Positions 1 to 15,934 are shown, numbered from the stretch's first letter. The stretch: 64,000 nucleotides of DNA from an uncultured SAR86 cluster bacterium (GCA_902509965.1 CABWZP010000002.1:23652-87651), one strand, 5' to 3'. The notes: generated by a model not told the origin, from the sequence alone. A program made the numbers and translations.

Positions 1-427
1 AATTAAAGAAAAGTACTATCTTAATGATATGCAAAATTGGGCAAGTTGCAGAGAAATTGATATAAATTGGCCTAGCATTTTTCCCATTAATTCTGTGAAA
101 GCGATGCGTGGTTGCCTTTATGCAGAATTAAATAACAATTTACATGAATATGCGCTAAGTATTTTTAAAGCATACTGGACAGATGATCAAGATATAAGCT
201 CTGATAAGATTTTAGAAGATATATGCCTTAAAAATGGAATTGATTCAAAGAAGTTTTTTGAATTTATTGATATGCCATCTACAAAACAAAAACTTATAGA
301 TAATTCTAAAGATTTAATTGAAAAGGGTGGTTTTGGATCACCAACTTTTTTCTATAAAGATAAAATGTTTTTTGGTAATGATAGGCTAGATTTACTATCC
401 AGCCTATTACAAAAAGAATTAATTTAG
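1..427 (+). CDS. DsbA-fold 2-hydroxychromene-2-carboxylate isomerase / GST-kappa-like protein, 5' end outside window
   Basis: Frame is open from base 2 with no stop before the tracked ATG at 29, so the gene probably starts upstream of the window. The C-terminal 'GGFGSPTFFYKDKMFFGNDRLDLL' resembles the conserved tail of HCCA-isomerase/DsbA-like proteins. Confidence 0.6.
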   Translation, partial: IKEKYYLNDMQNWASCREIDINWPSIFPINSVKAMRGCLYAELNNNLHEYALSIFKAYWTDDQDISSDKILEDICLKNGIDSKKFFEFIDMPSTKQKLIDNSKDLIEKGGFGSPTFFYKDKMFFGNDRLDLLSSLLQKELI

Positions 428-1512
428 AATCCTTGAACCTTTGCAGCCTCTTTCCTTACTAATTCTGGTGAGCCGAGCAATTGTCGATTCATACCAATTC
501 TTTTAAACCAATAATGCAGTCCAAGAAGGTCTGTGAATCCCATTCCGCCATGAACCTCAGTCGATTTTTTTGCTACCATTTTGCTTACCTCAGATACATG
601 AGATTTTGATTGACAGGCCATCAATCTAGCTTCTTCTGGAACATTATCAAAACAATGGGATGCATGCCAAACAATTGCATAGCAAGGCTCTAACTCCGCT
701 GCCATTTCAGCACACATATGTTTTACAGCCTGGAAAGAGCCAATTACTCTACCAAATTGCTTTCTTTCTTTTGCATATTCAACTGCTCTGTCAATCATAA
801 CTTGAGAGGCTCCAATGCTATCTGCAGCCAACATAATCCTTCCAGCATCAATAGTTTTAGTAATAGCTTCTGCGCTTTGAGAAGAGTGTTCTAGAACATC
901 AATATCTGCATTATTAAGTACAATCTCAAAATAATCTCTAGTCTTATCAACAGAAGTTAATTTAACTACTTCAACTTCATTATCTTCAGCACAAACAATA
1001 CCCATAGTTCCATTTTTATTAGCTAAAATAAAATGAGATGCGCGATCTCCATCAATAACAAATAAAGCTCTTCCGCTTGCTTTGTTGTTATCAATTTCTA
1101 TACCTGCATCATCTCGAGCACCTATATATTCTGTTAAGCCCACACCAAAATTTATTTCATTTGATGCAATCTTACTTAGATAATTATCTTTTTGAGAGTT
1201 ATTCCCTCCATGCATAATTGCAAGAGGAGCCATTACATAAGATCCAATAAAAGGAATAGGTGCAACGCCTGATCCAAGACCCTCAGACACAGCTGCAGCA
1301 AAAAGTAAGTCTAATTCTAAACCTCCATATTCTTCAGGAATCAATAAAGCATTTAGACCTAGATTAATAAGACCTTGATGGATTTCTTTTTGAAGATCTT
1401 CGCCTTCACCACCTGTAATCTTTCTTATTACATCCAATGAGGATTGATCTTCAAGAAATTTTTTTACATTATCTTGAAAAAATACTTGTTCTTCAGATAG
1501 TCCAAAATACAT
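424..1512 (-). CDS. acyl-CoA dehydrogenase family protein, small and apparently non-catalytic partner of a tandem pair
   Basis: Tracked ORF 424-1599 trimmed to the ATG at 1512 (MYFGLSEEQVFF...), 1 nt after the stop of the upstream ACAD. The ACAD-like C-terminal half is present ('FGRVIGSFQAVKH', 'VHGGMGFT'), but the family signature is degenerate and both usual catalytic-Glu positions read Gly. Confidence 0.8.
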   Translation of the reverse strand: MYFGLSEEQVFFQDNVKKFLEDQSSLDVIRKITGGEGEDLQKEIHQGLINLGLNALLIPEEYGGLELDLLFAAAVSEGLGSGVAPIPFIGSYVMAPLAIMHGGNNSQKDNYLSKIASNEINFGVGLTEYIGARDDAGIEIDNNKASGRALFVIDGDRASHFILANKNGTMGIVCAEDNEVEVVKLTSVDKTRDYFEIVLNNADIDVLEHSSQSAEAITKTIDAGRIMLAADSIGASQVMIDRAVEYAKERKQFGRVIGSFQAVKHMCAEMAAELEPCYAIVWHASHCFDNVPEEARLMACQSKSHVSEVSKMVAKKSTEVHGGMGFTDLLGLHYWFKRIGMNRQLLGSPELVRKEAAKVQGF

Positions 1513-1513
1513 C

Positions 1514-2737
1514 TTAAACTCCTTGAACTTTTGGTTCTCTTGGGAGGCCCAAGCCTCTTTCAGAAATAATATTTTTTTGAATTTGGCTAGTCCCGCCACC
1601 TATTATTAAACCTAGAAAATACATATAAGTGAACTGCCAAGATCCGCCGTCTCTTAAGTGAGGACTATCTTCATATAAAGTTCCTAATTCACCCATAATA
1701 TCTATACCCAAGCCTTCAAGTTCGTGCCTTAACTCAGTCCCAATTAATTTTTGAATCATTTTGCCAACTTTTACATCCTGACCAGGATTTAATTTAGCAG
1801 ATAATACCCTTAAAGCATGAGATTGAAATGCCATGACTTTACCCTGCACCTGGAGCAACCTATCTCTGTAGATAGGGTTTTCGATTAAAGTTTCACCATT
1901 TATTGTTTCTTTTTTCATTCTGTCGATTAGCATATTTAATCTATTCATAGTTGCATTAGGGTTAGCCAGAGATCCTCTTTCATGGCCTAAAGTTGCATTT
2001 GCAACAGCCCAACCTTCACCTCTATTTCCTACTATATTATCTGCAGGAATAGTAACATCAGTAAAAAACACTTCATTAAAGCCTGCTTTAAGCGTCATAT
2101 CTACTAAGGGTCTTATTTCCAAACCAGGTGTATCCATTGGAACTAATAAATAACTAATTCCTGCATGTTTTGAAGCTTCTGGCTCTGTTCTTACAAGGCA
2201 AAACATCATTTGGGAATATTGAGCTGTACTGGTCCAAATCTTTTGCCCGTTAATAACCCATTGATCATCTATTAACTCACCTTTGGTTTGTAGGCTTGCC
2301 AAGTCACTACCAGCATTAGGTTCTGAATAGCCTTGGCACCAAATCATTTCTCCATAAAGCGTCGGCTTTATATATTTATTTTTTTGCTCTTCTGTTCCAA
2401 GTTCTAGCAATGTTGGCACAAGCATATCAATCCCTTGGCCACCCATTGGTCCTGGAATTCCTGCATTTGAAAATTCTGTAGCCGCAATCCTGCTCTTTAT
2501 TACATCTGACTCCCCACCAAATCCGCCATATTCTTTTGGAATTGATCGTGCAAAATAACCATTTTCAATTAGAGTCTTTTGCCAATCTGATCTAGACATT
2601 GAAGGACCACCAGATTTGTTGTTTGAAGTCAGAGGAGCTTTAGCTGTATCACTAAATTGAATACCTTTATATTTATCACAGAACGCTTGAACTTCTTTTT
2701 TATAGTCCTCGTATTGTGGTCCGTATTCTAAATCCAT
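1514..2737 (-). CDS. acyl-CoA dehydrogenase, large subunit of tandem pair
   Basis: 407 aa. ACAD signature 'CQGYSEPNAGSDLASL'. Glu in 'TLGHERGS' (IVD/LCAD-type position). C-terminal 'IGGGTSQIQKNIISE'. Confidence 0.9.
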   Translation of the reverse strand: MDLEYGPQYEDYKKEVQAFCDKYKGIQFSDTAKAPLTSNNKSGGPSMSRSDWQKTLIENGYFARSIPKEYGGFGGESDVIKSRIAATEFSNAGIPGPMGGQGIDMLVPTLLELGTEEQKNKYIKPTLYGEMIWCQGYSEPNAGSDLASLQTKGELIDDQWVINGQKIWTSTAQYSQMMFCLVRTEPEASKHAGISYLLVPMDTPGLEIRPLVDMTLKAGFNEVFFTDVTIPADNIVGNRGEGWAVANATLGHERGSLANPNATMNRLNMLIDRMKKETINGETLIENPIYRDRLLQVQGKVMAFQSHALRVLSAKLNPGQDVKVGKMIQKLIGTELRHELEGLGIDIMGELGTLYEDSPHLRDGGSWQFTYMYFLGLIIGGGTSQIQKNIISERGLGLPREPKVQGV

Positions 2738-2740
2738 AAT

Positions 2741-3544
2741 TTACTCCTTATTTACTTTATCCCAATCAGGCTCTCTTTTTTCTAAGAATGCGGAAATACC
2801 TTCTTTAGCATCCTCACCTTCAAAGCATTTAGAAATTTGTTCCTGAAGATAAGGAAGAGCTGAATCAAAACTCATAGCATCTTGTTTTTCAAAAGCTTCT
2901 AAACCAAACTGCATAGTACCAGGAGCTAAACTTGCCAGCTCAGTTGCAAGATTGTCGACTTTGTTATCTAAATCTTGGCTATTAACAGATTCATTAATTA
3001 GACCCCATTGCTCTGCTTTATCTGCGTCTATGGGCTGCCCCCTCATTATAAAATCTAGACCCGCTCTTTTAGGCATAACTCTAAATAAACCTGCCATGAC
3101 CATAAAAGGCCATAACCCGCGCTTAATCTCTGGAGCAGAAAATTTTGCTTCTTTGATAGCTATTGCATGAGTAGAATTAGTAACCATTAAAAGTGCACCA
3201 GCAAGAACTGAACCTTGGATTTTGCAAATGACAGGTTTGTAAAGATGCCTTAAAGCTAAACTTATATCATTAGCATCCTCTAACACAGGAACATTTGATT
3301 CTGATTTTTCTCTTCTTAAATCAGCCCCTGCACAAAAAATATCTCCCTCAGCAGCAATTACAACAACTCTTACATCTCTTTCTTGTTTTGCATAAGCTAG
3401 TGCATAATTTATTTCATTCATCATGACATTGTTTAATGCATTCTTTTTTTCGGGACGATTCAGAGTAAGAGTCAGTATGTTATTAGAAACATCTACTTTT
3501 GTAGCTTGAAAGATCAATCCTTCTAATGATAATTTATTTGGCAT
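2741..3544 (-). CDS. enoyl-CoA hydratase/isomerase (crotonase family; AtuE/LiuC-like)
   Basis: 267 aa. 'VVVIAAEGDIFCAGADLR' oxyanion-hole motif. Abuts the AtuA-like gene. Confidence 0.85.
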   Translation of the reverse strand: MPNKLSLEGLIFQATKVDVSNNILTLTLNRPEKKNALNNVMMNEINYALAYAKQERDVRVVVIAAEGDIFCAGADLRREKSESNVPVLEDANDISLALRHLYKPVICKIQGSVLAGALLMVTNSTHAIAIKEAKFSAPEIKRGLWPFMVMAGLFRVMPKRAGLDFIMRGQPIDADKAEQWGLINESVNSQDLDNKVDNLATELASLAPGTMQFGLEAFEKQDAMSFDSALPYLQEQISKCFEGEDAKEGISAFLEKREPDWDKVNKE

Positions 3545-5317
3545 TTAAGACTCCTTAAGAAGTGAACAGGGTATATCTACTATTTTAGCTCTCAAGTATT
3601 CACCTAATGATTTTGCTTGTCCATCTTTCCTGTTATTAGATGAAACACCATCCTCTAATATCCCATGAATATAAAAGTTTAAAGATTTAATGTTCGAAAG
3701 ATCATATCTATCAATTTCATATTCATGAAGATCAGGCATTAACTCTTTAAGCTTTTCAACTGTTAAAAAATTAAATAAGAAAGAATAGGCTACATCAGTT
3801 TTTGCCCAAACTCCTAAGTTAGCACAACCACCTTTATCACCTGACCTTGCGCCATATAAAGTTCCAAGAGGACTCTTTTGAGTTTCACCTTTAGGTGCTG
3901 GAGCAATTTCAACTAGATTTTTCTGATAAAAATTATCTTTAAAACCCATTTGGCTTGTTGGAATAATTTCAGTTGTTTCCCCATCTAGGTGCACATATTC
4001 TTTTATATATTTACTATCCACCAGAGCGGGCCAATAGACAATAACTGGTCCAGGTTTTTTCCCACCACCGCCAGAAAAGAAACCTGGATAATTAGCTAAA
4101 GATAGCTCAATTATTTTTGCACTAAATAATCTTCCAACCAGATCAGGATTCATAGATTTAACTACTATTGATAATGTTGCCATTGCCTCTTCATTAGAAT
4201 TTGGATTTTCTTTATCAGTTCTATGTAGATTTATTGAAACATCGTCAAATTGCTCTTTTCCGCCTACTGAATTAAATAAAGCATTAGTAAATGCCTCAGC
4301 CTTTTCTTCAATATCTAAACCTGTTAGGACAAGATCCATTCCATTTCTGTAACCACCTGCAAGATTAATACATGCTTTGTGGGTTGGAGGAGGACTACTG
4401 CCTCTGCAACCTGAGACAAAGACTCTATCATCACTTTCTTGCTCAATACTAAGAGTATCAAAGTGCCCAATAACATCAGGATTTAGATAAGCTGGAGAAC
4501 TAATTTCATAAAGAAGTTGCGCGGTAACTGTTCCGATTGAGACTAATCCACCAGTCCCAGGATGTTTGGTAATAGTAAAACTACCATCCTCTTCAATTTC
4601 AGCAATGGGATAACCAACATTATCAAAACTTGGCACCTCTTTAAAAAAAGAATAATTTCCTCCAGTAGCCTGACAGCCACATTCTATAATGTGACCAGCA
4701 GCAAGAGCACCCGCAAGAGCATCGTAATCTGTTCTTTTCCATCCGAACTTCCATGCAGCAGGACCAATAACAACAGCTGCATCTGTAACTCTTGGACATA
4801 CAACAATATCAGCACCTTTATCTAGAGCTTCTTTAATCCCCCAAGCTCCCAAATATGCGTTTGCAGTAAGGGTCTGACATCCAGAGTCAACAAGGGGTAT
4901 ATTTTTATCCATATTATTAAACAACTCACCCTCGTTATTTAATTCTGAAATTCTAGGCATAAGATCATCACCATCGATATATGCAACTTTAAGATTTATC
5001 GATAATTCCTTTAATATTTTTTCTATCTCCATAGCCATAGATGAGGGATTTAATCCTCCAGCATTAGTAACAATTTTTATGTTTTTCTCTTTACAAGATT
5101 GAGCAACGTCTTTTACTTGTTTTAAAAAAGTGCCAACATAACCCTTATCCTCTCCTCTTTGCATTTTTTGATTAAAAAGAATGGTCATAGTTAATTCAGC
5201 AAGATAGTCTCCTGTGAGCACGTCTATAGGCCCCCCATCAACCATGTCCTTAGCTGCAGATAGTTTATCGCCATAATATCCACTGCAATTGGCTATTTTT
5301 ATTACATCCTTACTCAT
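3545..5317 (-). CDS. acyclic terpene utilisation AtuA-like protein (DUF1446)
   Basis: Tracked ORF trimmed to the ATG at 5317 (MSKDVIKIANCSGYYGD...), preceded by GGAG and 1 nt after the TetR stop. The N-terminal 'CSGYYGDKLSAAKDMVDGGPIDVLTGDYLAELTM' is typical of DUF1446/AtuA. About 590 aa, like Pseudomonas AtuA. Confidence 0.75.
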   Translation of the reverse strand: MSKDVIKIANCSGYYGDKLSAAKDMVDGGPIDVLTGDYLAELTMTILFNQKMQRGEDKGYVGTFLKQVKDVAQSCKEKNIKIVTNAGGLNPSSMAMEIEKILKELSINLKVAYIDGDDLMPRISELNNEGELFNNMDKNIPLVDSGCQTLTANAYLGAWGIKEALDKGADIVVCPRVTDAAVVIGPAAWKFGWKRTDYDALAGALAAGHIIECGCQATGGNYSFFKEVPSFDNVGYPIAEIEEDGSFTITKHPGTGGLVSIGTVTAQLLYEISSPAYLNPDVIGHFDTLSIEQESDDRVFVSGCRGSSPPPTHKACINLAGGYRNGMDLVLTGLDIEEKAEAFTNALFNSVGGKEQFDDVSINLHRTDKENPNSNEEAMATLSIVVKSMNPDLVGRLFSAKIIELSLANYPGFFSGGGGKKPGPVIVYWPALVDSKYIKEYVHLDGETTEIIPTSQMGFKDNFYQKNLVEIAPAPKGETQKSPLGTLYGARSGDKGGCANLGVWAKTDVAYSFLFNFLTVEKLKELMPDLHEYEIDRYDLSNIKSLNFYIHGILEDGVSSNNRKDGQAKSLGEYLRAKIVDIPCSLLKES

Positions 5318-5318
5318 C

Positions 5319-5930
5319 TCATTTCTCCAACCTAATACCATTTAAAATTATTTCAGTAATAGAATTTGCTGATTTTTCAGGAGAATCTGATAGTTTCTCG
5401 ACATTAACATCTTTTGCGAAGTCTCTCCCTATGCCTCCTAAAAGCAATGCAAATGCCTGGGTATCAATTGTTTTAATCTCATTTTGAGCTATGGCATCAT
5501 CTAATAACTCTTTAGTATAAGAAGTAATGTAATCTTCATGATAGTCAATCATTTCTTTTGATTGAATATTGTTACCTAAATTTTGAAGATAGACTTTAAA
5601 TCTTGGGCCTACTGCTTGATTAGCATGCTGTAAATATTTCTTTAATTTCTCCAGGGGAGAATCGATTTCAGCAATTATATCTAGAGCCTCTTTACCTAAC
5701 TTCATTAAAATTCTATTAACTGTCATTCGTATTAAGTGATCTTTACTTGGAGCAATTTCATAGAGTGTCCTTAAAGATACTTTTAGCTTTGCTGCCAATT
5801 CAGACATAGTTAAATCAGGAATACCTTTTTCTAGCATTAACTCTAATTTATCAATTACTTGTTTATGTTTATTGGTAATAGGCTTTACTGATTTTCCTGA
5901 GATTACCTTAATTTTTTCAGTTACATGCAT
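5319..5930 (-). CDS. TetR family transcriptional regulator (AtuR-like by context)
   Basis: 203 aa. N-terminal HTH 'TMSELAAKLKVSLRTLYEIAPSKDHLI'. Embedded between the carboxylase alpha subunit and the AtuA-like gene. Confidence 0.8.
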   Translation of the reverse strand: MHVTEKIKVISGKSVKPITNKHKQVIDKLELMLEKGIPDLTMSELAAKLKVSLRTLYEIAPSKDHLIRMTVNRILMKLGKEALDIIAEIDSPLEKLKKYLQHANQAVGPRFKVYLQNLGNNIQSKEMIDYHEDYITSYTKELLDDAIAQNEIKTIDTQAFALLLGGIGRDFAKDVNVEKLSDSPEKSANSITEIILNGIRLEK

Positions 5931-5932
5931 TA

Positions 5933-7861
5933 TTAATGAGAATTAAGAACCATCAATAATGCTCCATTTTCAACTTGGTCATTATCGCTTATAAAAAGCT
6001 CACTAATAACTCCATCCTCAGAAGCTTTAATGGAGTGCTCCATCTTCATTGCTTCTAAAATAACTAAAGTATCTCCAGCTTTAACTTTAGAACCTTTTTT
6101 AACTTTTAAATCAATGACAGTACCTGGCATAGGGGCTACTAGACCACCAGCTTGCACCTCCAACCCGGGAACAATAAATCTAGGAAGAATCTCAAGCAGA
6201 ACATCACCAAAAGGCATATGAACAAGCACTTGATTTTTATTAATAGTTACTTTTGAGAAATGTCTTTTACCATCGAACTCAAGATCAATTCCATTTTCGT
6301 AACATTCATAAATAAATGCTACTGATGAATTATGAATTTTAAATGATCCATCTCTTCTAGCTCTATAAGTAACATTAATTTCATCGTCTTTATATTTAAA
6401 TTTAATATTTTGTTTTGGCGTTCTTCCATTTGTCCAACCTGAAGGCAAATGACCTAAAACATCATCATGCAACCTATTTAATTCCTGAATCCATAATGCA
6501 GCTATAGCAGTTACATGATCAAGTTGCTCTTCACTGAGGATCAATACTCTAGGCGGCTTTACTCTTTCAATGAAATCAGTAGTAGTATCTCCATCTAAAA
6601 ATTCCTGTGTTTTTAAAGTTGCAACTAGAAAGTCTCTATTTGTAGTTAATCCACCAATATGAGCTGCCTCTAATGCTCTAGCTAATTTGATTGCTGCATC
6701 AGTTCTTGTTGCACCATAAGAGATAACTTTTGCTAACATTGGATCAAAAGATGTACCAACTATCGATCCAGACTCTACACCAGAATCCCATCGAGCTTCA
6801 GCTTCATAATCCTCTTCAAATGCAATTAGTGTTCCTGTTTCAGGAAGAAAGTCATTATCAGGATCTTCAGCATATAATCTAGCCTCAATAGAGTGACCAC
6901 TCCAACTAATATCATATTGTTCATAGCCCAACTCTTCACCTCTTGCTATTCTTAGTTGCTCATATACAAGATCCATATCTGTAACTTCTTCAGTAACAGG
7001 ATGTTCTACTTGCAGTCTAGTGTTTACTTCAAGAAACCAAAATTCACCTGTTTTATCATCGAAAAGAAACTCCACAGTTCCTGCAGATTGATATTTAATT
7101 TTTTTTGCAAGTTGAACAGCTGCTGAACCCATAGCCTCTCTTATTTCTGGAGATATTCTTGGAGATGGAGATTCCTCGATAATTTTTTGATGTCTTCTTT
7201 GAATAGAACATTCTCTTTCACCAAGATGAACTACATTTCCATGAGAATCGCCTAGAATTTGTATCTCAATATGTCGAGATTTTTCTACATATCTTTCTAT
7301 AAATACTCTTTCATCTCCAAACCCAGACTTTGCCTCTCTTTGAGCACTTACAATAGCTTCTTTAAGATCTTTTTGAGATTGAACTATCCTCATGCCTTTT
7401 CCACCACCACCAGCAGCAGCTTTAATTAGAAGAGGATACCCAATATTTTTAGCTTCATTAGGTTTTGAGGTCATTGGAAGAGTAGGGACATTAGCTTTAA
7501 CAGCCAACTCTTTTGCTTTTAATTTATCTCCCATAACTGAAATCACATGCGCAGATGGACCAACCCAAATAATTTTTTCTTTGAGAACTTTTCTAGCAAA
7601 AGATGCATTTTCTGATAAAAAACCATAACCAGGATGTATAGCCTGAGCCCCAGTTTTTTTTGCAGCATCTAGAATAAGATTTCCATCAAGATAGCCTCCA
7701 TCAGGAAGACGAAAAGCTTCATCAGCTGCTCTTACAAAAGGCGCATCTGCATCTGCATCAACATACACAGCAATACATCTAATACCCATTTCATGAGCAG
7801 TTTCTATTATTCTTACAGCTATCTCACCTCTATTAGCGATTAGTAATGAATTAAAAATCAT
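5933..7861 (-). CDS. acyl-CoA carboxylase alpha subunit (biotin carboxylase + BCCP; AtuF/LiuD-like)
   Basis: 642 aa. ATP-grasp biotin carboxylase ('LLIANRGEIAVRII', 'GGGGKGMR'). C-terminal biotinyl motif 'LEAMKMEH'. Confidence 0.93.
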   Translation of the reverse strand: MIFNSLLIANRGEIAVRIIETAHEMGIRCIAVYVDADADAPFVRAADEAFRLPDGGYLDGNLILDAAKKTGAQAIHPGYGFLSENASFARKVLKEKIIWVGPSAHVISVMGDKLKAKELAVKANVPTLPMTSKPNEAKNIGYPLLIKAAAGGGGKGMRIVQSQKDLKEAIVSAQREAKSGFGDERVFIERYVEKSRHIEIQILGDSHGNVVHLGERECSIQRRHQKIIEESPSPRISPEIREAMGSAAVQLAKKIKYQSAGTVEFLFDDKTGEFWFLEVNTRLQVEHPVTEEVTDMDLVYEQLRIARGEELGYEQYDISWSGHSIEARLYAEDPDNDFLPETGTLIAFEEDYEAEARWDSGVESGSIVGTSFDPMLAKVISYGATRTDAAIKLARALEAAHIGGLTTNRDFLVATLKTQEFLDGDTTTDFIERVKPPRVLILSEEQLDHVTAIAALWIQELNRLHDDVLGHLPSGWTNGRTPKQNIKFKYKDDEINVTYRARRDGSFKIHNSSVAFIYECYENGIDLEFDGKRHFSKVTINKNQVLVHMPFGDVLLEILPRFIVPGLEVQAGGLVAPMPGTVIDLKVKKGSKVKAGDTLVILEAMKMEHSIKASEDGVISELFISDNDQVENGALLMVLNSH

Positions 7862-9516
7862 AATCTATAAACCCCATATTCATTTGCACCTTCAATCGGA
7901 ATATTGTTAACCACTGATAAGCAAAAGCCTAATATCGTTCTAGTATCTCTTGGATCAATAATTCCATCATCAGTTACCATACTGCTAGCAACAAGGCCAT
8001 GAGACATACCTTCAGCTGCAGCTTCGACCATTTTTCGTATTTGAGCATCAGCTTTTTCATCAAATTTTTCACCAGTCCTTTTTGCTTTGGCCTTTCTTAC
8101 TATAGACATTACTCGTGCAATCTGTTCCGGACCCATTACTGCTATTTTTGCGGTCGGCCACAAGAAAGTGAAACGATTATTGTAAGCTTGCCCAGACATT
8201 GCATAAGTTCCAGCTCCATATGACGCACCAATAATAATTGTGATATGCGGGACCATTGAATTAGAAACAGAATTAATTAGTTGAGAGCCTTTTTTAATAA
8301 TTGCCTGCCTTTCAAAATCTTTACCTACTAAAAATCCAGTAACATTCTGTAAAAAAATAAGCGGTATATTCCTTTTATTACATAATTGAATGAAGGTAGC
8401 AGCCTTTTCAGCACATTCTGGATAAATGGGGCCATTATTTCCAACTATTCCAACCTGGTAACCATGAACACTTGCCCAACCGCATATCATAGTTGGTCCA
8501 TATAAGGTTTTATATTCTTCAAATTGTGAACCATCTGTAAATCGTGCTATTACCTCTCTTATATCGACTGGAGATTTAAGATCTTCGCTAATTAAACCCA
8601 ATAAGTCTTCTTGATCAAATACAGGCTCAGAAGGTATTTTCTTGGGCAGATCACCACTTTTTTTCCAATTTAGATGCGATACAACTTCTCTACATATTCT
8701 TAAAGCATCCATTTCATCCTCAGCAAGATAATCTGATAAGCCAGAAATTTCAGAGTGCATTTGAGCTCCTCCTAGAGTTTCAGCATCAGATTCTTCTCCA
8801 GTAGCCGCTTTCACTAAAGGAGGTCCCGCTAGAAAAACTTGCGACTGATCTTTGATAAAGATATTGTAATCTGACATTCCGGGCTGATAGGCTCCTCCAG
8901 CTGTTGAAGATCCAAAAACTACAGAAATAACTGGAATTTTAAGTTTAGATAATTCAGTCATTTCATAAAAAAATCTACCTGTTGCTGCAAAATGAGTATT
9001 TTGAATAGTAGGTGAAATTGGCGCTTGACCGCTTTTGCTTCCAGTTCCCATACTTAAGTCACCACCTGCAGATTCAACAAAACTTATAAAGGGAATTTTA
9101 TTTTCTCGAGAGATTTCTATAGCTCTTTTCCATTTTTCTCCCACATAAACAGTCATAGCTCCCGCTTTTACGGAGGGATCATTACCAAAGATTACACATT
9201 CGACACCAGAAACCATGGCTATGCCAGAAACACAGCCACCTCCGACTGTGTAATTAGTTCCATATGCTGCAAAAGGACTTATTTCGAGAAAAGGACTATC
9301 GTCATCAATCACGTTCATTATCCTTTCACGAATAGGCATCTTGCCTCTCTTAGCCAATCTTTCGTGATGATAGGCGCCACCACCTAATTCGGCTTGATCC
9401 AAAAGATCATCTAAAAAATTAAGCTTTTCAAGCATACTTTGTTTATTTTTTTGATATTCTTCTGATTTTGTATCTAAATTACTTCGAAGTTGCGGGGCGA
9501 TATTTTTAGAATGCAT
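7858..9516 (-). CDS. acyl-CoA carboxylase carboxyltransferase beta subunit (AtuC/LiuB-like)
   Basis: 552 aa. Carboxyl-transferase domain throughout. 4-nt overlap with the alpha subunit gene. First gene of the minus-strand operon. Confidence 0.9.
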   Translation of the reverse strand: MHSKNIAPQLRSNLDTKSEEYQKNKQSMLEKLNFLDDLLDQAELGGGAYHHERLAKRGKMPIRERIMNVIDDDSPFLEISPFAAYGTNYTVGGGCVSGIAMVSGVECVIFGNDPSVKAGAMTVYVGEKWKRAIEISRENKIPFISFVESAGGDLSMGTGSKSGQAPISPTIQNTHFAATGRFFYEMTELSKLKIPVISVVFGSSTAGGAYQPGMSDYNIFIKDQSQVFLAGPPLVKAATGEESDAETLGGAQMHSEISGLSDYLAEDEMDALRICREVVSHLNWKKSGDLPKKIPSEPVFDQEDLLGLISEDLKSPVDIREVIARFTDGSQFEEYKTLYGPTMICGWASVHGYQVGIVGNNGPIYPECAEKAATFIQLCNKRNIPLIFLQNVTGFLVGKDFERQAIIKKGSQLINSVSNSMVPHITIIIGASYGAGTYAMSGQAYNNRFTFLWPTAKIAVMGPEQIARVMSIVRKAKAKRTGEKFDEKADAQIRKMVEAAAEGMSHGLVASSMVTDDGIIDPRDTRTILGFCLSVVNNIPIEGANEYGVYRL

Positions 9517-9545
9517 ATTTTAAAATTAATAAATAATGAGGCTTA

Positions 9546-9573
9546 TGGTAATATATTATTATTAATATTACCA
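9546..9573. promoter_or_regulatory. inverted repeat TGGTAATAT-N10-ATATTACCA, candidate operator in divergent promoter region
   Basis: Perfect 9-bp arms read directly from the sequence. It lies 30-57 bp upstream of the carboxylase operon start (9516) and 47-74 bp upstream of the GST start (9620). A TetR regulator is encoded in the operon. Confidence 0.4.
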
Positions 9574-9619
9574 CTTTAAAAGAGTACTATAAGGTCTTCT
9601 ATATACCCAAGGAGTTTTT

Positions 9620-10243
9620 ATGACAATTAAAATTTATAGTTGTGACGGTTCAAGAGGAATGCGTCCTATATGGACAGCAGAAGAAATGGGTTTAGATTAT
9701 GAAGTTGAGATGATGCCATTTCCTCCGCGTTTTCTTCATAAAGAGTTTATGGATATTAATATTTTGGGTACCATACCTTATATGATTGACGGCGATGTGC
9801 GCATGACCGAGTCAGTAGGGATGAGTCAGTACTTTGTGGATACTTATGGACCAACAGATCTCAAGGTAAATGTTGATGAGGCTGACTATGGTAATTATCT
9901 TAACTGGCTATCTCATGCAGACGCTACTTTAACTTTTCCACAAACTGTTGTCTTAAGATATACCCTGCAAGAGATTGGAGTTGCTGACAAAGCTGCTGAA
10001 GGTTACAGGCGTTGGTTTGTTGCAAGATTAAAGTTATTAGAACAAACTTTGGGAGATAGAGAATATCTTTGCTCAAACAGGTTCACCATTGCAGATATAT
10101 GCGTAAGTTATGCATTATTTTTAGCAAAATCTTTAGGTATAGATGAAGCTTATAAACCTAATATTACTCGATGGACCGATATGTTATTTGAAAGAGAAGC
10201 TTTTAAAAAAGCTAAAAGCTTTAAATGGGAGGCGAAAGAATAA
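9620..10243 (+). CDS. glutathione S-transferase family protein
   Basis: 207 aa. Thioredoxin-like N-domain ('GTIPYMIDGDVRMTESVGMSQYF') plus helical C-domain. AGGAG RBS upstream. Confidence 0.8.
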   Translation: MTIKIYSCDGSRGMRPIWTAEEMGLDYEVEMMPFPPRFLHKEFMDINILGTIPYMIDGDVRMTESVGMSQYFVDTYGPTDLKVNVDEADYGNYLNWLSHADATLTFPQTVVLRYTLQEIGVADKAAEGYRRWFVARLKLLEQTLGDREYLCSNRFTIADICVSYALFLAKSLGIDEAYKPNITRWTDMLFEREAFKKAKSFKWEAKE

Positions 10244-10244
10244 A

Positions 10245-11519
10245 TTGAAGAAACATTTTGTAAACAAAGCTATCTTTTTTACTCTTTTATGCTCGATTCA
10301 TTTGGGATTAGAAGCAAAAGAAGAAATTAATAGTACGAATCATATTCAATCTATAGTCTTAGGTTCTGGTTGTTTTTGGGGTGCTGAAAAGGGCTATGAA
10401 GCACTTCCAGGCGTTATTAGCGCAGTCTCGGGTTACGCAGATGGCTACGGTGTCAAACCAAACTATAGAGCTATTACTCAGTTAAAGAACAGGATGAACC
10501 CTAATAACCATGCCGAGGTAGTAAAAGTTATTTTTAATTCCCAGTTAATTAATGTTGAGGATTTATTGCAGCACTATTACGAAAGCCATGATCCAACTCA
10601 GCTTAATAGACAAGGAAATGATATAGGAACTCAATACAGATCTATTATTTTGTACGAAAATGAAGAGCAGAAAAAAATTGCAAACGAAGTTACAAATACT
10701 TTTCAAAAGTTATTAACTGATTCTGGTTATGGCGAGATCAAAACTCTGATCAAAGAGCTTCAAGAATTCTATGATGCAGAAGAATATCATCAAGACTATA
10801 TTGCTAAAAATCCTAATGGCTATTGCCCCGATCATTCAACGGGGATCAAATTTAATCCAAATGACCAAATTGCAAAACTTGATAACAGTAAGCTTAAAGA
10901 TGGTAAGCAGATAGTAATAATAGAACCAGAAGGTTTTTGCCCTTATTGTGAGAGTTTTAAAGAGAATGTTGTAAAAGATTACAAAGGTAGTATTAGTATA
11001 TCTTTCCGTCTAGCAAGCAATTTACAAGATCTTGAAATTAAAACACCAACATGGGCTACTCCAACAATTTTGTTTTTAGAGGACGGTATTGAGGTCTTTG
11101 GTTACCAAGGATACCTCGAGCCTAAAGAATTTTATAAATATTTTGGTGCTTTTAAGTTGGGTAGAAGTGAGGCCTATAACGTGGCTTTTAATGAGGGTAC
11201 AGATGCAAGATTTTGCAAAGAATATGAGATTTTTAAGAATACTCCTGATGGAATATTTATTGATAAATTAAGCGGAGCTGCCTTATTTGATACAAAAGAT
11301 AGATTCAATTCTTCATCTGGATGGCTTTCTTTTACTAGACCAGTCAAAGACTCTACGTATGAGCTTCCAGATAATAGCTATGGAATGAGAAGAACGGAGA
11401 TAAGATCTAAGAGTTCAGATATTCATCTCGGCCATGTTTTTCCTGACGGCCCAAATGGCATGCCACGATATTGCATTAATGCAACAGTATTAGAATTTGT
11501 ATTAAGAGAAAATATTTAA
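10245..11519 (+). CDS. msrAB: exported peptide-methionine sulfoxide reductase fusion MsrA - CPYC thioredoxin/glutaredoxin-fold domain - MsrB
   Basis: MsrA active site 'GSGCFWGAEKGY'. Central 'FCPYCESFKENV' CxxC domain. MsrB 'GWLSF...HLGHVFPDGP...RYCINA'. The tracked ORF starts at 10143 inside the GST gene. I prefer the TTG at 10245, which yields a signal-peptide-like 'KKHFVNKAIFFTLLCSIHLGLEA'. The start codon is uncertain. Confidence 0.85.
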   Translation: MKKHFVNKAIFFTLLCSIHLGLEAKEEINSTNHIQSIVLGSGCFWGAEKGYEALPGVISAVSGYADGYGVKPNYRAITQLKNRMNPNNHAEVVKVIFNSQLINVEDLLQHYYESHDPTQLNRQGNDIGTQYRSIILYENEEQKKIANEVTNTFQKLLTDSGYGEIKTLIKELQEFYDAEEYHQDYIAKNPNGYCPDHSTGIKFNPNDQIAKLDNSKLKDGKQIVIIEPEGFCPYCESFKENVVKDYKGSISISFRLASNLQDLEIKTPTWATPTILFLEDGIEVFGYQGYLEPKEFYKYFGAFKLGRSEAYNVAFNEGTDARFCKEYEIFKNTPDGIFIDKLSGAALFDTKDRFNSSSGWLSFTRPVKDSTYELPDNSYGMRRTEIRSKSSDIHLGHVFPDGPNGMPRYCINATVLEFVLRENI

Positions 11520-11551
11520 CGCTAAAAAATATATCTATATATAATTGTTGC

Positions 11552-12028
11552 ATGAATAAACAAGATAAATTTATTAAAGCACTTAGAAATTTAGCTTATC
11601 CTGTATGCATTATTTCTAATATTGAGAATGGTCATAAAAATGCTATTACAGTATCTTCTATGACTTCTCTTTCTATAGATCCAGCTTCTTTACTGGCATG
11701 TATAAATAAATCAGCCAGTATTCATAAAACCTTAAATGTAGGTAATTTAGTAAATGTAAATCTATTGAGCTCTTCACAACAAGAAATTTCAACAATTTGT
11801 AGTTCGAGCGATTTAGATGTGAGTAGGTTTGATAATGATTTTTGGTCATATAATGACAGTCAAATACCTTTTCTTGAAGATTCTCAGGCAATTATAGGAT
11901 GTAAAATTGAAGAGATAGTAGATTACGCTACTCATTCAATTTTAATTTTATCTATAGAAGATGTTATTTTAAATAACGAACAACCAGACCCTTTACTCTA
12001 TTGTAATGGAGATTATTTAAAGCTTTAA
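11552..12028 (+). CDS. flavin reductase-like FMN-binding split-barrel protein
   Basis: 158 aa. 'ALRNLAYPVCIIS...NAITVSSMTSLSIDPASLLACINKSASIH' matches the flavin reductase domain pattern. Confidence 0.7.
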   Translation: MNKQDKFIKALRNLAYPVCIISNIENGHKNAITVSSMTSLSIDPASLLACINKSASIHKTLNVGNLVNVNLLSSSQQEISTICSSSDLDVSRFDNDFWSYNDSQIPFLEDSQAIIGCKIEEIVDYATHSILILSIEDVILNNEQPDPLLYCNGDYLKL

Positions 12029-12037
12029 AGTTTATCT

Positions 12038-13195
12038 TTAGTCTAGTAATGAAACCACTCTTTCATATGCGACTGCAAATTCCTCTTTAAATTTTTGAAC
12101 TGTTTGTCCGGCAGTAATAGTCTCATCAACCAATCCAATACCTTGACCAACCCAATAGGTTGCAAGTTCTTTTGCACCTTCATGGCCAATTTCAGCTTGT
12201 TTATTTACAACTGCTAAAGCAGGCTCACTAATCATGGTTTGCAACGGCATTGGTAACGGCTCAGGAGCGTCTTTAGACTCCCATGCATCTGTCCAGGCAG
12301 ATTGGAGTTGTCTTGAATGTTTCCCTGTTCTGCTGCGAGATCTTACCGTTTGACTTGAAGAAGCATTCACCATTTTTTCTTTAATTACTTCTGATGTTTC
12401 AGCTTCTTTTGTAGGAAGAAATACTGAAGCGCACCAAACTCCATCAGCACCCATCGCCATAACTCCTGCCATTTGTTCACCGGTAGCTATTCCTCCTGCA
12501 GCAAGAATTGGTATATTGCCATGTTCTTGAATTGCTCTTTTAACTTCTGGTACCAGCACCATCGTAGAAACGCTCCCACAATGACCTCCGCCTTCTGTTC
12601 CAGAAACTACCAATATATCGACTCCAGCTTGAACCTGTTTTATTGCATGCTCTTTAGCACCTAGCAGCGCTGCAACCTTCACATTATTATCTTTACCCAT
12701 ATCAAGCATCCATTTTGGAGGCACTCCCAGAGCGTTAGCTATTAATTGGATAGGGTGCGAAAAGGCTACTTCTAAGAGTTTTTGAGCACCATCTTGCTTC
12801 AAATTTTTTCCAAATCTAGAGTCAGAGGCAAGTTCAATATTCTTAGCTTCACCACCACCTCTTAAAATTTCTCCATCAACATCATATTGCTTTAAGACAT
12901 CAGCTCTAAAATCTCTATACTCTTGCGGAATCATATTTCTCAAATCTTCAGAGGTCATATTTGAGCCTTTACCTTCAAATTTGTTTGGAACCAATAAGTC
13001 TACGCCATAAGGTTTCCCATCAATATGCTCATCAATCCATTTTAGATCTTGTTCAAGCATTTCAGGAGTATGCCCAACTGCACCCAAAACACCCATCCCC
13101 CCAGCTTTTGAAACCGCAACAACAACATCTCTACAATGGCTAAATGCAACCATTGGAAATTCAATATCGAACATTTCACAAATTGGTGATTTCAT
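12038..13195 (-). CDS. nitronate monooxygenase (2-nitropropane dioxygenase, NMO family)
   Basis: 385 aa. TIM-barrel FMN enzyme motifs 'VVSGTEGGGHCG' and 'ILAAGGIATGEQ'. Confidence 0.8.
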   Translation of the reverse strand: MKSPICEMFDIEFPMVAFSHCRDVVVAVSKAGGMGVLGAVGHTPEMLEQDLKWIDEHIDGKPYGVDLLVPNKFEGKGSNMTSEDLRNMIPQEYRDFRADVLKQYDVDGEILRGGGEAKNIELASDSRFGKNLKQDGAQKLLEVAFSHPIQLIANALGVPPKWMLDMGKDNNVKVAALLGAKEHAIKQVQAGVDILVVSGTEGGGHCGSVSTMVLVPEVKRAIQEHGNIPILAAGGIATGEQMAGVMAMGADGVWCASVFLPTKEAETSEVIKEKMVNASSSQTVRSRSRTGKHSRQLQSAWTDAWESKDAPEPLPMPLQTMISEPALAVVNKQAEIGHEGAKELATYWVGQGIGLVDETITAGQTVQKFKEEFAVAYERVVSLLD

Positions 13196-13335
13196 ACTTA
13201 CTACTCCTAAAAACTATTTTTTATTAATTCCCTATATATTTGTAAGATTTATTCTATCTTAGTTTAATTAACTTCTGTACTTTTGACTGAATGTGCACCT
13301 AAACAAATCTTTATAAATTGTATTAAAATTCAAGT

Positions 13336-13833
13336 ATGAACAATAATAGTACAATGTTTTCAGTCCCAGATATCTGTGATACCCATGCGGAGAACATTCA
13401 AATAGGCAGCCTATCTTTCAATTCTTATGGCGCTAAAGATATTATTTCGGGAGAAATTCAAACCATTTCATGTCCAGATGATAATTCTTTAGTCAAAGAA
13501 ATCTTAAATCAACCAGGAAATAATAAAGTTTTAATTATTGATGCCGAAGGTGTAAATCATGCATCTATGATAGGAGACCAGATAGCTAGCAAAGCATTAG
13601 AAAATAATTGGAATGGAATTATAGTAAATGGCTTTGTGAGAGATATTGAAATATTAAAGACTATTCCCATTGGGATATATGCAAAAGGCTCAATACCAAA
13701 AAAAACTCATAAAAAAGGTCTAGGATTTCTTGATGTTGATGTTTTTATAGGCGGAATTTTAATAAAAGCAGGTAACTGGGTATATCTTGACTGTAATGGC
13801 TGGGTGATATCCAAAAAAGAATTAGAACTTTAA
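13336..13833 (+). CDS. rraA: RraA family protein (RNase E regulator / 4-hydroxy-4-methyl-2-oxoglutarate aldolase family)
   Basis: 165 aa. 'DICDTH...', 'VLIIDAEG...ASMIGDQIASKALENNWNGIIVNGFVRD' aligns by eye with E. coli RraA. An alternative start at 13354 is possible. Confidence 0.85.
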   Translation: MNNNSTMFSVPDICDTHAENIQIGSLSFNSYGAKDIISGEIQTISCPDDNSLVKEILNQPGNNKVLIIDAEGVNHASMIGDQIASKALENNWNGIIVNGFVRDIEILKTIPIGIYAKGSIPKKTHKKGLGFLDVDVFIGGILIKAGNWVYLDCNGWVISKKELEL

Positions 13834-14709
13834 CTCTTCAAATTTTTTATCTTTCTCAAGCCACAATTCATCTATCCAGTTTTTAAAATTATTTCTATAA
13901 GTATTGTCATTTAAATAATCCTTATTTTTTAGCTCTTCAGGTATTTCATATTCCTTAATGTGAACTTTGACATCTCGCATCTCTCCCTTTAAAAATGCCC
14001 AAGAGCTTCTCTCTGAAGATTTGTAAATAATCGTACAGTCTATCAATTTATCTATTTGTGGAATTGCAGATAAAGCAGTGGCAATACCACCAACTTTAGG
14101 CTTAAGAAAATTTTTATAGGGCGAAGCTTGTTCAATATGTTTCTTATTTGTGTGTCTTGTGCCTTCTGCATAACTAAAGACTGTAGTTGGCGATCTATGA
14201 AAACGTTTACAAGACTGAATGGTATTTTCATAATCTTTAAGTCTCAGACTTGGATTCTTTTCTATTTCTAGCCTTGAATGTCTATGAACAAAAGGCATAT
14301 TTAGAGCTTTATTAGCAAGAAATACAAAGGGTATCCACCACAATTCTTTTTTCATAAATATTTTAAGAAGAGGCACTCTATAATTTGTAGCAACTAGAAT
14401 TACAAAAATATCTGCCCAAGAGCTATGATTTGAAATAGCTAAATACCAATTATCTACTGATAAATTTTTATCACTAATGATTTGAATTGAGTGTTTTCCA
14501 TGCATCAATTGCAAAATATACTTGAGCCCTAAAACAGTATATTCACCTATCTGATTTGATTTTCTGTAGAGAAAAACCTTAAAGCGTTGGGAGCGAATAA
14601 TGGATCTTGGTATATTTATTAATGCCAAAGTTCCAAAACCAATAATTAACTCTAAAAGAATGAGAGTTAGGGTGATAACACCAATTAGATTTGATTTTAG
14701 ATAATTCAT
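13822..14709 (-). CDS. lysophospholipid/glycerolipid acyltransferase (PlsC/LPLAT family, YihG-like)
   Basis: 295 aa. N-terminal TM segment. HX4D motif 'NHSSWADIF' and 'YAEGTR' block. Confidence 0.7.
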   Translation of the reverse strand: MNYLKSNLIGVITLTLILLELIIGFGTLALINIPRSIIRSQRFKVFLYRKSNQIGEYTVLGLKYILQLMHGKHSIQIISDKNLSVDNWYLAISNHSSWADIFVILVATNYRVPLLKIFMKKELWWIPFVFLANKALNMPFVHRHSRLEIEKNPSLRLKDYENTIQSCKRFHRSPTTVFSYAEGTRHTNKKHIEQASPYKNFLKPKVGGIATALSAIPQIDKLIDCTIIYKSSERSSWAFLKGEMRDVKVHIKEYEIPEELKNKDYLNDNTYRNNFKNWIDELWLEKDKKFEELKF

Positions 14710-14773
14710 ATAAATAACTCTCTTCTAAAAGAGCTAATTATTATAACAATTAGATAATTTGTTAGAAGAGTAT

Positions 14774-15913
14774 TTAAAAATTACTTAAATTTGCATATCT
14801 TTCTTGATGGAAATTAGCACCACCAAAAATAACTTCAGCAACCCTAGCTCTTTTCATGTAAAAACCAATATCATATTCATCGGTTACACCAATTCCTCCA
14901 TGCATTTGCACTGATTCATTTGAAACTAAATATAGAGTTTCACCTGCAATAGATTTAGCAAGGCTTGCCATTCTCTGTAAATCGTTATTATTTTCATCAG
15001 CCCCTTGCATTGCTGCCATTACGGCTGATTTAGTAAGCTCAATTTCACAAAACATTTCTGCAGCTCTATGCTGAAGAGCTTGAAAAGTTCCAATCAAAAC
15101 TCCAAATTGTTTTCTTTCTTTTAAATAGTTTAATGTCATTTCAAAGGCGGCTTCAGAATTACCAAGCATTTCAGCGGATAAAGCTATTCTTCCTTCATCT
15201 AAAATCTTATCTATAGCTTCACCACCAGATTCTTGGTCACCTAATAAAGCATCTTTAGATATTGTGACATTATCTAAGACTACGTTTGCATAGTTTCTGC
15301 AGTCGGCCATATCTGTTTTAATAATTTCTACACCAGTATGGCTAGCATCAACAATGAATAAGGTGAGACCTGCTTTATCACCTTTTATGCCTGAAGTCCT
15401 TGCTAGGATAATAAGAATATCAGCACTCGCACCATCTACTACAAATTTCTTTTTGCCATTTAACACCCACTCATCTCCAACGAGCTCTGCTTGAGCCATG
15501 CTATTAAAGGGCGCATGATGACTTTCCTCATCAATCGCAATAGCTGTAGTAATATTTCCAGCTGCAATTTTTGGTAAATACTCAGCTTTTTGTTCTTGTG
15601 TTCCAAAAGTATTAATTGCAGAAGCTCCCATTACCGCAGTTGCAAATAAAGGAGAGGGAGTTAGTGTTTTTCCTACCTCTTGCATGATAACGCTTATACC
15701 AGCAAGTCCAAAATCAGAACCTCCAAACTCTTGAGGAATTAAAATACCAGCCCATCCAAGATCTACCATTTCTTTCCAAACATCTTTGTCCCAATTTAAG
15801 GGATCATTATTATCTCTGAGAGATCTAAAGTGATTTACTGGAGTTCTGTTTGCCGCAAAATCTTTAGCAGAATCGCTAAGCATTTGCTGTTCTTCATTAA
15901 GTACTAATTTCAT
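14774..15913 (-). CDS. acyl-CoA dehydrogenase family protein, small and apparently non-catalytic partner of second tandem pair
   Basis: 379 aa. ACAD C-terminal domain ('FGVLIGTFQALQH', 'VQMHGGIGVT'). Degenerate signature ('AIAIDEESHHAPFNS'). Gly at both usual catalytic-Glu positions ('ILDEGRIAL', 'IFGGANFHQ'). Confidence 0.8.
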   Translation of the reverse strand: MKLVLNEEQQMLSDSAKDFAANRTPVNHFRSLRDNNDPLNWDKDVWKEMVDLGWAGILIPQEFGGSDFGLAGISVIMQEVGKTLTPSPLFATAVMGASAINTFGTQEQKAEYLPKIAAGNITTAIAIDEESHHAPFNSMAQAELVGDEWVLNGKKKFVVDGASADILIILARTSGIKGDKAGLTLFIVDASHTGVEIIKTDMADCRNYANVVLDNVTISKDALLGDQESGGEAIDKILDEGRIALSAEMLGNSEAAFEMTLNYLKERKQFGVLIGTFQALQHRAAEMFCEIELTKSAVMAAMQGADENNNDLQRMASLAKSIAGETLYLVSNESVQMHGGIGVTDEYDIGFYMKRARVAEVIFGGANFHQERYANLSNF

Positions 15914-15934
15914 AATTATCTTCCTATATAATTT

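Follow-up and report, generated by a model that had tools for sequence, protein, structure and literature searches.

Ordinary beta-oxidation is blocked by a methyl branch on the beta carbon of an acyl chain. How a bacterium with a streamlined genome might deal with such a branch is the question raised by a seven-gene operon at positions 424-9516 of a 64,000-nt stretch of DNA from an uncultured SAR86 cluster bacterium (GCA_902509965.1, CABWZP010000002.1:23652-87651; this whole stretch is referred to as the window). The genome of origin measures 1.08 Mb in 48 contigs, with an estimated completeness of ~82%, and the window is part of its contig C2. The host is a SAR86 gammaproteobacterium; among named relatives, the single-cell genomes SCGC AAA168-P09 and AAA076-P13 come closest to it, together with many marine metagenome-assembled genomes (MAGs) filed as 'uncultured Gammaproteobacteria'. 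We read the operon, with a probability of roughly 0.65, as a TetR-repressed module that bypasses the beta-methyl (3-methyl) branch of an acyl-CoA, isoprenoid-derived acids being the most likely substrates. The logic of such a pathway is already known from the acyclic terpene utilization (Atu) system of Pseudomonas, and a preliminary description of the window had treated the operon as an Atu-like variant. That reading was upheld overall, while its details on the carboxylase, the hydratase and the status of AtuA had to be corrected.

All seven genes are located on the minus strand and abut one another. In gene order they encode a carboxyltransferase (CT) beta subunit (552 aa, 7858..9516; Pfam Carboxyl_trans, 405.8 bits), an alpha subunit of the biotin carboxylase-BT-BCCP type (642 aa, 5933..7861; Biotin_carb_N, CPSase_L_D2, Biotin_carb_C and Biotin_lipoyl, with the biotin motif EAMKME), a TetR-family regulator inside the operon (203 aa, 5319..5930; TetR_N, 26.2 bits against a cut-off of 24), and an AtuA-family protein (590 aa, 3545..5317) that matches the AtuA (DUF1446) profile PF07287 with 529.1 bits over positions 1-437 of 437 and AtuA_ferredoxin (PF23544) with 54.1 bits. 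These are followed by a crotonase-fold enoyl-CoA hydratase (ECH; 267 aa, 2741..3544; ECH_1, 147 bits), the large, putatively catalytic subunit of an acyl-CoA dehydrogenase (ACAD; 407 aa, 1514..2737; all three ACAD domains) and its small, putatively non-catalytic partner (362 aa, 424..1512), in which the N- and C-terminal ACAD domains were recognized and the middle domain had no Pfam match. Direct reading of the sequence gave junctions of -4, +2, +1, 0, +3 and +1 nt in gene order, the first being an ATGA overlap that joins the CT and biotin carboxylase (BC) genes. Two start codons were corrected: that of AtuA to 5317 (MSKDVIKIANCSG, with GGAG 8 nt upstream) instead of the longest-frame start at 5341, and that of the small ACAD to 1512 (AAGGAG 7 nt upstream) instead of 1599. 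Open reading frame (ORF) calls and the Pfam and NCBIfam results thus bear out the seven co-directional, abutting genes, their products and the junction range of -4 to +3 nt given in the preliminary description. The four differences that it had listed from the Pseudomonas system are also real: the lack of short-chain dehydrogenase/reductase (SDR) genes, the lack of genes for a ligase and for 3-hydroxy-3-methylglutaryl-CoA (HMG-CoA) lyase, none of which was detected within the operon by ORF calls and Pfam, the ACAD pair, and the embedded regulator. A promoter and terminator scan of positions 250-9750 returned counts at or below the shuffled expectation and is neutral as to a single transcript.

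According to the mechanism that we propose, the heteromeric dehydrogenase would produce a 3-methyl-2-enoyl-CoA, and the biotin-dependent carboxylase formed by the alpha and beta subunits would carboxylate its gamma carbon, which is the methyl branch itself. Hydration of the 3-(carboxymethyl)enoyl-CoA thus formed, catalysed by the crotonase, would yield a tertiary 3-hydroxy compound, which AtuA would cleave in a retro-aldol reaction to acetate and a 3-oxoacyl-CoA that could go back into beta-oxidation. HMG-CoA lyase would not be needed, because AtuA would carry out the cleavage. The TetR protein would bind a TGGTAAT-N14-ATTACCA operator that also serves a divergent glutathione S-transferase (GST) gene, and the GST may provide the cis-enoyl isomer that such carboxylases require. 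Likely substrates would be products of chlorophyll phytol or other acyclic terpenoid acids. In this scheme the genes present, their conservation, the clades of the carboxylase, its pocket residues, the fold match and the joint occurrence of operator and regulator are observed, and all catalytic activities, the sequence of the steps, the part played by the GST and the substrate are inferred.

The operon is strongly conserved. We scanned one genome per species for relatives of AtuA, which yielded more than 500, and examined the best 80 loci. Among these, the identical seven-gene order was present in ~20 SAR86 loci with AtuA identities of 65-81%; because the order recurs in this many related loci, the arrangement is not a matter of chance. 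AtuA clusters are also very common in marine metagenomes, where one cluster at 90% identity was found on 135 contigs and another comprised 327 member sequences. Within 41 genomes of the SAR86 order, CT and AtuA were each present in 36 and jointly present in 34, always a few kb apart on one contig. Both genes were absent from four genomes, and in two genomes with discordant CT and AtuA the genes were situated at contig ends. Variation in layout was seen as well: in five genomes of family f3 (G026, G029, G032, G035 and G038) CT and AtuA lie ~4 kb apart on opposite strands, the operon being split into two units. In a genome of the window's own genus that is 59% complete (G004:C2:399010-404479), CT has seven in-frame stops and AtuA one, which indicates either a decaying copy or poor assembly.

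We then turn to the carboxylase. Residues 8-552 of the CT, including the N-terminal extension, align to the beta subunits of 3-methylcrotonyl-CoA carboxylase (MCC) as well as of geranyl-CoA carboxylase (GCC) with 430-487 bits (PaMCC 487, human MCC 484, GCC 432), compared with ~210 bits for betas of the propionyl-CoA carboxylase (PCC) type. The extension, which PCC beta lacks, is a criterion for the MCC/GCC family (PMC4673880). The alpha subunit has full-length PDB matches to MCC alpha subunits, covering the BC, BT and biotin carboxyl carrier protein (BCCP) domains, with a weak match to BT_MCC_alpha (22.1 bits against a cut-off of 31). For comparison, a CT survey covered 150 gammaproteobacterial genomes and 20 regions were fetched. 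These sorted into canonical liu clusters (isovaleryl-CoA dehydrogenase, CT, hydratase and BC, often joined by HMG-CoA lyase) and clusters in atuCDEF order, one of which has an AtuA gene upstream. Tree clades were labelled by this gene context rather than by PDB or Pseudomonas reference sequences. With a PCC-type enzyme as the root of the CT tree, CTs from liu contexts formed a basal grade and all AtuA-linked CTs fell in one clade (support 99). The AtuA-linked clade was split into a GCC type, consisting of the atuCDEF-order clusters (L105 and L102 included) and Cellvibrionales sequences, and a sister clade (support 99) that unites the SAR86 operon with actinobacterial and proteobacterial CT-BC-ECH-AtuA clusters. 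The BC tree agreed with the CT tree (support 100). Both subunits are thus placed outside the LiuB/LiuD clade. The preliminary description had named two outcomes that would refute it, subunits squarely inside this clade in a genome with no other liu genes, and a 590-aa ORF that fails the AtuA profile; neither was observed. Its assignment of an AtuC/AtuF-type carboxylase stands in so far as the enzyme is AtuA-linked and outside the liu clade; it does not stand in so far as the enzyme belongs to a sister lineage of AtuC/AtuF and not to that group itself.

The residues around the acyl pocket point in the same direction. In MCC beta, Phe191 and the three-residue insert that precedes it block geranyl-CoA, whereas GCC beta has Gly162 at this site and no insert (PMC4673880). 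In our alignment the liu CTs read DREHF-GR, those of the GCC type IP---GGK, and the SAR86 CT HFAA---TGR. The MCC insert is therefore absent from the SAR86 protein, and Thr occupies the position of MCC Phe191 and GCC Gly162, where its relatives have Ser or Gly. The proteobacterial subclade additionally has an insertion of 12-16 aa just upstream of the pocket site. As judged by alignment, the SAR86 pocket appears GCC-like and unobstructed. From both trees and the pocket alignment, the carboxylase is best described as a predicted third lineage beside MCC and GCC, strictly belonging to neither LiuB/LiuD nor AtuC/AtuF.

This placement bears directly on an alternative in which the operon encodes a variant leucine/isovalerate (Liu-type) pathway, with a methylcrotonyl-CoA carboxylase, the ACAD pair in the role of isovaleryl-CoA dehydrogenase (IVD) and AtuA in that of HMG-CoA lyase. 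The gene logic (ACAD, CT, ECH, BC, lyase) does parallel liuABCDE, the best PDB scores of both carboxylase subunits are to MCC beta and alpha, and the enzyme is the only carboxylase of the MCC/GCC lineage in each SAR86 genome, the remaining matches being PCC-type at ~30% identity. However, both subunits lie outside the liu-context clade, the diagnostic Phe191 and insert are missing by the criteria of PMC4673880, and the dehydrogenase is apparently heteromeric and of a large-substrate type. The genomic context also argues against a leucine pathway. With an IVD from a liu locus as the query, no IVD ortholog was found in the 41 SAR86-order genomes, the best match having at most 35% identity, compared with 59-74% among the IVDs of liu loci. 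The E1_dh family had a match in 21 of the 25 genomes searched; it was large (nearly all SucA-sized) in 19 and small, resembling the branched-chain keto acid dehydrogenase (BCKDH), in two. No small BCKDH-type E1 was thus found in 23 of the 25, and none of these showed a route that leads from leucine to isovaleryl-CoA. HMG-CoA lyase scored over the cut-off in only six of the 41 genomes, two of which (genus g10) have no operon, and it was not found in the 82%-complete genome of the window. Several of the genomes without IVD, E1 and HMG-CoA lyase are single contigs with a completeness of 92-97%. Taken with the carboxylase data, this makes a Liu-type pathway unlikely.

For the beta-methyl bypass itself, the same context suggests which substrates to consider. 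An apparently open pocket, a dehydrogenase predicted to be heteromeric and the failure to find a leucine pathway all favour longer methyl-branched chains. Genes for PhyH-type alpha-oxidation are patchy (21 of 41 genomes), so that the operon is the sole evident way past a beta-methyl branch in many SAR86 genomes. As to where PhyH genes occur, each of five genomes of family f2 (G028, G031, G034, G037 and G040) has two PhyH-family genes ~25 kb from the carboxylase cluster. Isoprenoid acids would be the most economical guess for the substrate, and this is the weakest part of our reading.

The proposed cleavage step depends on AtuA, for which the preliminary description considered the biochemistry unassigned even in Pseudomonas. 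The protein combines an N-terminal CmlA-like domain with a C-terminal ferredoxin-like domain, and when 25 AtuA homologs are aligned, over 100 columns are invariant, among them H210, E213 and C214 in the GHIIECGCQATGGNY motif. An AF2 model based on this alignment (pLDDT 87.8, pTM 0.88) gave a single strong Foldseek match, 9evf_A, entitled 'Citramalate lyase - ADP - pyruvate complex' (E 1.2e-20). Alignment of the model with 9evf_A by VIA-align extended over 408 residues (model residues 3-447) with Z 29.8 and an rmsd of 3.9 A, the next match having Z 9.1. A profile search showed that 9ERQ/9EVF were deposited as 'Acyclic terpene utilization AtuA family protein | Citramalate lyase, subunit A (cmlA)'; the name citramalate lyase for CmlA is taken from these PDB titles. 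A profile of the C-terminal domain found no solved relative by sequence. Citramalate lyase converts a tertiary hydroxy acid to acetate and a keto acid. Other members of the family have been linked to similar chemistry: ThnQ and ThnS of an anaerobic naphthalene operon are listed as AtuA-like lyases that convert a tertiary 3-hydroxyacyl-CoA to a 3-oxoacyl-CoA (PMC12016498), and Pseudomonas AtuA has tentatively been named an acetate lyase that splits 3-hydroxy-3-isohexenylglutaryl-CoA into acetate and a 3-oxoacyl-CoA (PMC4847356). In their regiochemistry, the CmlA and ThnQS reactions correspond to what has long been proposed for AtuA. Given CmlA (9ERQ/9EVF) and ThnQ/ThnS (PMC12016498), the label 'unassigned' is out of date. 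Because its model matches CmlA with Z 29.8, SAR86 AtuA is probably an acetate-releasing 3-hydroxy-3-(carboxymethyl)acyl-CoA lyase, and it would have to perform the cleavage, since the search for HMG-CoA lyase found none in the genome of the window and none in 34 of 40 relatives.

A lyase of this kind might also act without the carboxylase. In such a scheme AtuA would open an alicyclic or other tertiary-alcohol CoA ester, as ThnQS does, the carboxylase would serve an unrelated step, and cyclic acids of the naphthenic type would be degraded. ThnQS cleaves a ring-borne tertiary 3-hydroxyacyl-CoA (PMC12016498), an atuA promoter is reported to respond to naphthenic acids (PMC11495318), and carboxylase-less loci with AtuA, an ACAD pair and an SDR do exist (L108). 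In SAR86, however, the lyase never occurs unlinked from the hydratase and the carboxylase, and the three are lost jointly; moreover, carboxylases of this lineage act on the gamma carbon of 3-methyl-2-enoyl-CoAs. We regard the cyclic-acid route as very improbable.

The locus just mentioned, L108 (positions 9279-14967), belongs to a MAG of the Azotimanducaceae. It consists of a divergent TetR gene followed by genes for AtuA, a large ACAD, a small ACAD and an SDR. Carboxylase and hydratase genes are not nearby, which represents a different use of the AtuA and ACAD-pair sub-module.

Turning to the dehydrogenase, the IVD-type placement of the catalytic base is known from isovaleryl-CoA dehydrogenase to make room for a 3-methyl group. 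The large ACAD of the operon has its catalytic Glu at this position, which is that of IVD and long-chain acyl-CoA dehydrogenase (LCAD) (GHERG), and a Gly (IIGGGTSQ) at the position of Glu376 in medium-chain acyl-CoA dehydrogenase (MCAD). In the small ACAD the IVD-type base position is a Gly (DAGRI), and there is no C-terminal Glu of the YEG type. The best PDB matches of the large subunit were 4x28_A (168.5 bits) and 6wy8_B, while the small subunit matched 6wy8_A, the partner chain of 6wy8_B. From these sequence features the pair is predicted to form a heteromeric dehydrogenase with its catalytic base solely in the large subunit. The closest NCBIfam models were those of the PimC large subunit for the large ACAD (212 bits against a cut-off of 624), and of IpdE2 (117.7 bits against 450) and the PimD small subunit (98 bits) for the small one. 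A second pair of large and small ACADs (400 and 379 aa) followed by an acyltransferase is encoded at 13822-17137 on the minus strand. Several SAR86 loci keep this pair at a distance of ~5.8 kb from the carboxylase, and in its large subunit a Glu is present at the IVD-type as well as the MCAD-type position.

The hydratase had been taken for an AtuE-type enzyme, but it is not an AtuE equivalog. Its best NCBIfam matches are PRK08139 (194.6 bits) and EchA19 (167 bits), and it forms its own subfamily together with the hydratases of the Cellvibrionales clusters. The second catalytic Glu (APE) is kept and the first is absent, a condition found in every aligned hydratase from a liu or atu context.

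Some of these matches raise the possibility of a role in steroid catabolism, in which the operon would remove the C24 alkyl branch from the side chain of algal sterols by C24-C25 desaturation, C28 carboxylation, hydration and aldol cleavage. The same four-step chemistry has been reviewed for sitosterol and campesterol, with the carboxylase gene left unnamed (PMC6678751), and steroid ring-cleavage genes are reported in the SAR86 order (PMC11582366). Among the enzymes of the operon, EchA19 is the second-best model for the hydratase, the TetR protein weakly matches KstR, and the best PDB match of the large ACAD is 4x28_A, which we take to be ChsE4-ChsE5. The distribution of genes is not as expected for this role, since KshA_C occurs in 7 of 41 SAR86-order genomes and in none of nine from the window's genus, whereas the operon occurs in 36 of 41, and genus g10 has KshA but no operon. 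Moreover, all matches to steroid families are far under the equivalog cut-offs. Cleavage of sterol side chains is therefore, in our view, an improbable function of the operon. The two genomes of g10 (G017 and G024) present the opposite of the window's genus, in that they have HMG-CoA lyase and KshA-type genes and lack CT and AtuA.

For the regulation of the bypass module, the 103-bp gap between CT and the divergent GST gene proved informative. It contains an operator-like inverted repeat with perfect 9-bp arms, TGGTAATAT-N10-ATATTACCA (9546..9573), 29 nt upstream of the CT start codon. The arms, in the form TGGTAAT-N14-ATTACCA, are conserved in all 17 TetR-bearing loci while the spacer sequence varies, and none of the four exceptional loci without TetR (L005, L025, L027 and L037) has them (0/4). 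A predicted operator that is confined to loci with the TetR gene provides good evidence, on comparative sequence grounds, for an autoregulated operon.

The GST gene itself (207 aa, 9620..10243, plus strand; GST_N and GST_C domains) did not figure in the preliminary description as a partner of the cluster, and it is conserved beside related clusters. Orthologs with 48-91% identity adjoin the cluster in 29 loci of four architectures, carboxylase-less ones included; where AtuA and the ACAD pair are present but the carboxylase is missing, the gene still lies upstream of AtuA. Its orientation is divergent in the SAR86 loci and in L046, and co-directional, directly upstream of CT, in L027 and six Cellvibrionales loci; an ortholog was also called in Maricurvus (L107). 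The protein has no close characterised relative, its best PDB match scoring 48 bits. The GST gene is probably co-regulated with the operon through the common control region. A study of geranyl-CoA carboxylase has argued that its active site accommodates the cis isomer alone (PMC4673880), which makes a role of the GST as a glutathione-dependent E/Z enoyl-CoA isomerase an attractive, if speculative, idea. The presence of a single such carboxylase in SAR86 suggests that the module probably serves every round of degradation, down to 3-methylcrotonyl-CoA. A more far-reaching version of our reading, which we put forward only tentatively and consider rather doubtful, is that this one module, with the third-lineage gamma-carboxylase, the heteromeric dehydrogenase, the GST as isomerase and AtuA as lyase, replaces both the Atu and the Liu pathways in SAR86, dispenses with HMG-CoA lyase and degrades chlorophyll-derived and other isoprenoid acids in repeated rounds.

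Beyond the GST, an FMN flavoprotein of the NMO family (12038-13195, minus strand) is kept near the operon in SAR86 loci, and a gene of this family directly follows the hydratase gene in L027 (L027:12656) and L037 (L037:6345), both of which lack the ACAD pair. MsrA, a thioredoxin-like segment and MsrB are united in a single ORF at 10143-11519 on the plus strand. Upstream of the window, 20 kb of its contig encode a TonB receptor, an AMP-binding ligase, a crotonase and an OYE flavoprotein, none of which fixes the substrate.

Compared with the Pseudomonas atuR-atuABCDEFGH system, the SAR86 operon has the same set of a dehydrogenase, a gamma-carboxylase, a hydratase and the candidate acetate lyase AtuA (PMC4847356). 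In both systems a TetR-type repressor is accompanied by an inverted-repeat operator, and the predicted carboxylase pocket is open, without the Phe and insert of MCC. The differences are these: the SAR86 carboxylase represents the sister lineage, in which the Gly162 site is a Thr and the additional 12-16 aa insertion occurs; the hydratase comes from a different subfamily; and a two-gene, presumably heteromeric enzyme takes the place of the single AtuD dehydrogenase. In addition, Pseudomonas has the AtuB/AtuG SDRs, the AtuH ligase and a divergent atuR, whereas SAR86 has none of these and an internal regulator. A GST partner is present in SAR86, and neither a separate Liu pathway nor HMG-CoA lyase was found in most SAR86 genomes. 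With the Liu pathway (liuABCDE; MCC structures 3U9R/3U9S) the operon shares enzyme superfamilies, the type of holoenzyme, the top pairwise scores and the single-Glu hydratases, and it is set apart by its position in both trees, by the missing Phe191 and insert and by the failure to find IVD, or HMG-CoA lyase in the window's own genome and most of its relatives. The likeness of AtuA to CmlA (9ERQ/9EVF) and ThnQ/ThnS consists in the common Pfam family, in a fold that is shared with CmlA over 408 residues, and in the proposed cleavage at a tertiary hydroxylated carbon beside a carboxymethyl group to give a keto compound. CmlA is, however, a 456-aa 'subunit A' with a free-acid substrate, whereas SAR86 AtuA is a single 590-aa chain with a fused ferredoxin-like domain and presumably a CoA ester as substrate. 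Finally, the adjacent large and small genes and the best PDB and NCBIfam matches liken the ACAD pair to heteromeric alpha2beta2 ACADs (4X28, 6WY8; PimC/PimD; IpdE1/IpdE2), but the pair is encoded in a carboxylase operon rather than in a steroid or pimelate degradation context, and its scores are far under the cut-offs.

A number of observations weigh against a beta-methyl bypass of isoprenoid acids. In raw score the CT stands closer to the beta subunit of MCC (487 bits) than to that of GCC (432 bits), its pocket has Thr, or Ser in relatives, instead of the GCC Gly, and the 12-16 aa insertion may affect that pocket. The CT and BC trees come from a quick search with SH-aLRT support only, and since most loci were gathered by AtuA similarity, there is some circularity in linking the CT clade to AtuA. 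The hydratase reaches just 121 bits in the AtuE model, for which the cut-off is 426. For AtuA, the substrate of CmlA is a free acid and not a CoA ester, the identity between CmlA and SAR86 AtuA is just 18%, and the ThnQS result is given as unpublished in a 2025 review (PMC12016498). SAR86 AtuA is also only 34% identical to the AtuA of the atuCDEF-order cluster, and the invariant N-terminal motif differs between them (NCSGYYGD versus GGGAAMWGD). Furthermore, no isoprenoid-specific acyl-CoA ligase, alcohol or aldehyde dehydrogenase or transporter is encoded in the operon. 

SAR86 is among the most abundant bacterial groups of the surface ocean (PMC11582366). The operon is nearly universal in the SAR86 order (36 of 41 genomes). 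It goes unmentioned in the main comparative study of the group, which is anchored on an isolate and in which the terms 'carboxylase' and 'terpen' never occur (PMC11582366). What the locus adds to the known pathway logic is the carboxylase lineage, the predicted heteromeric dehydrogenase, the internal regulator with its operator and the GST partner, as well as a single module that, in a streamlined genome, apparently stands in for the Atu functions, the Liu functions and HMG-CoA lyase. The operon offers a compact, natural setting in which to test what AtuA does, and it highlights the conserved linkage of this GST to AtuA clusters. If our reading is correct, the operon would give SAR86 a route past the methyl branches of isoprenoid lipids, such as the products of phytol, which bears on the turnover of a large pool of algal carbon. 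Should the more far-reaching version hold, this would provide a biochemical function for AtuA and for a new class of GST, and SAR86 would represent a major marine sink for isoprenoid carbon.

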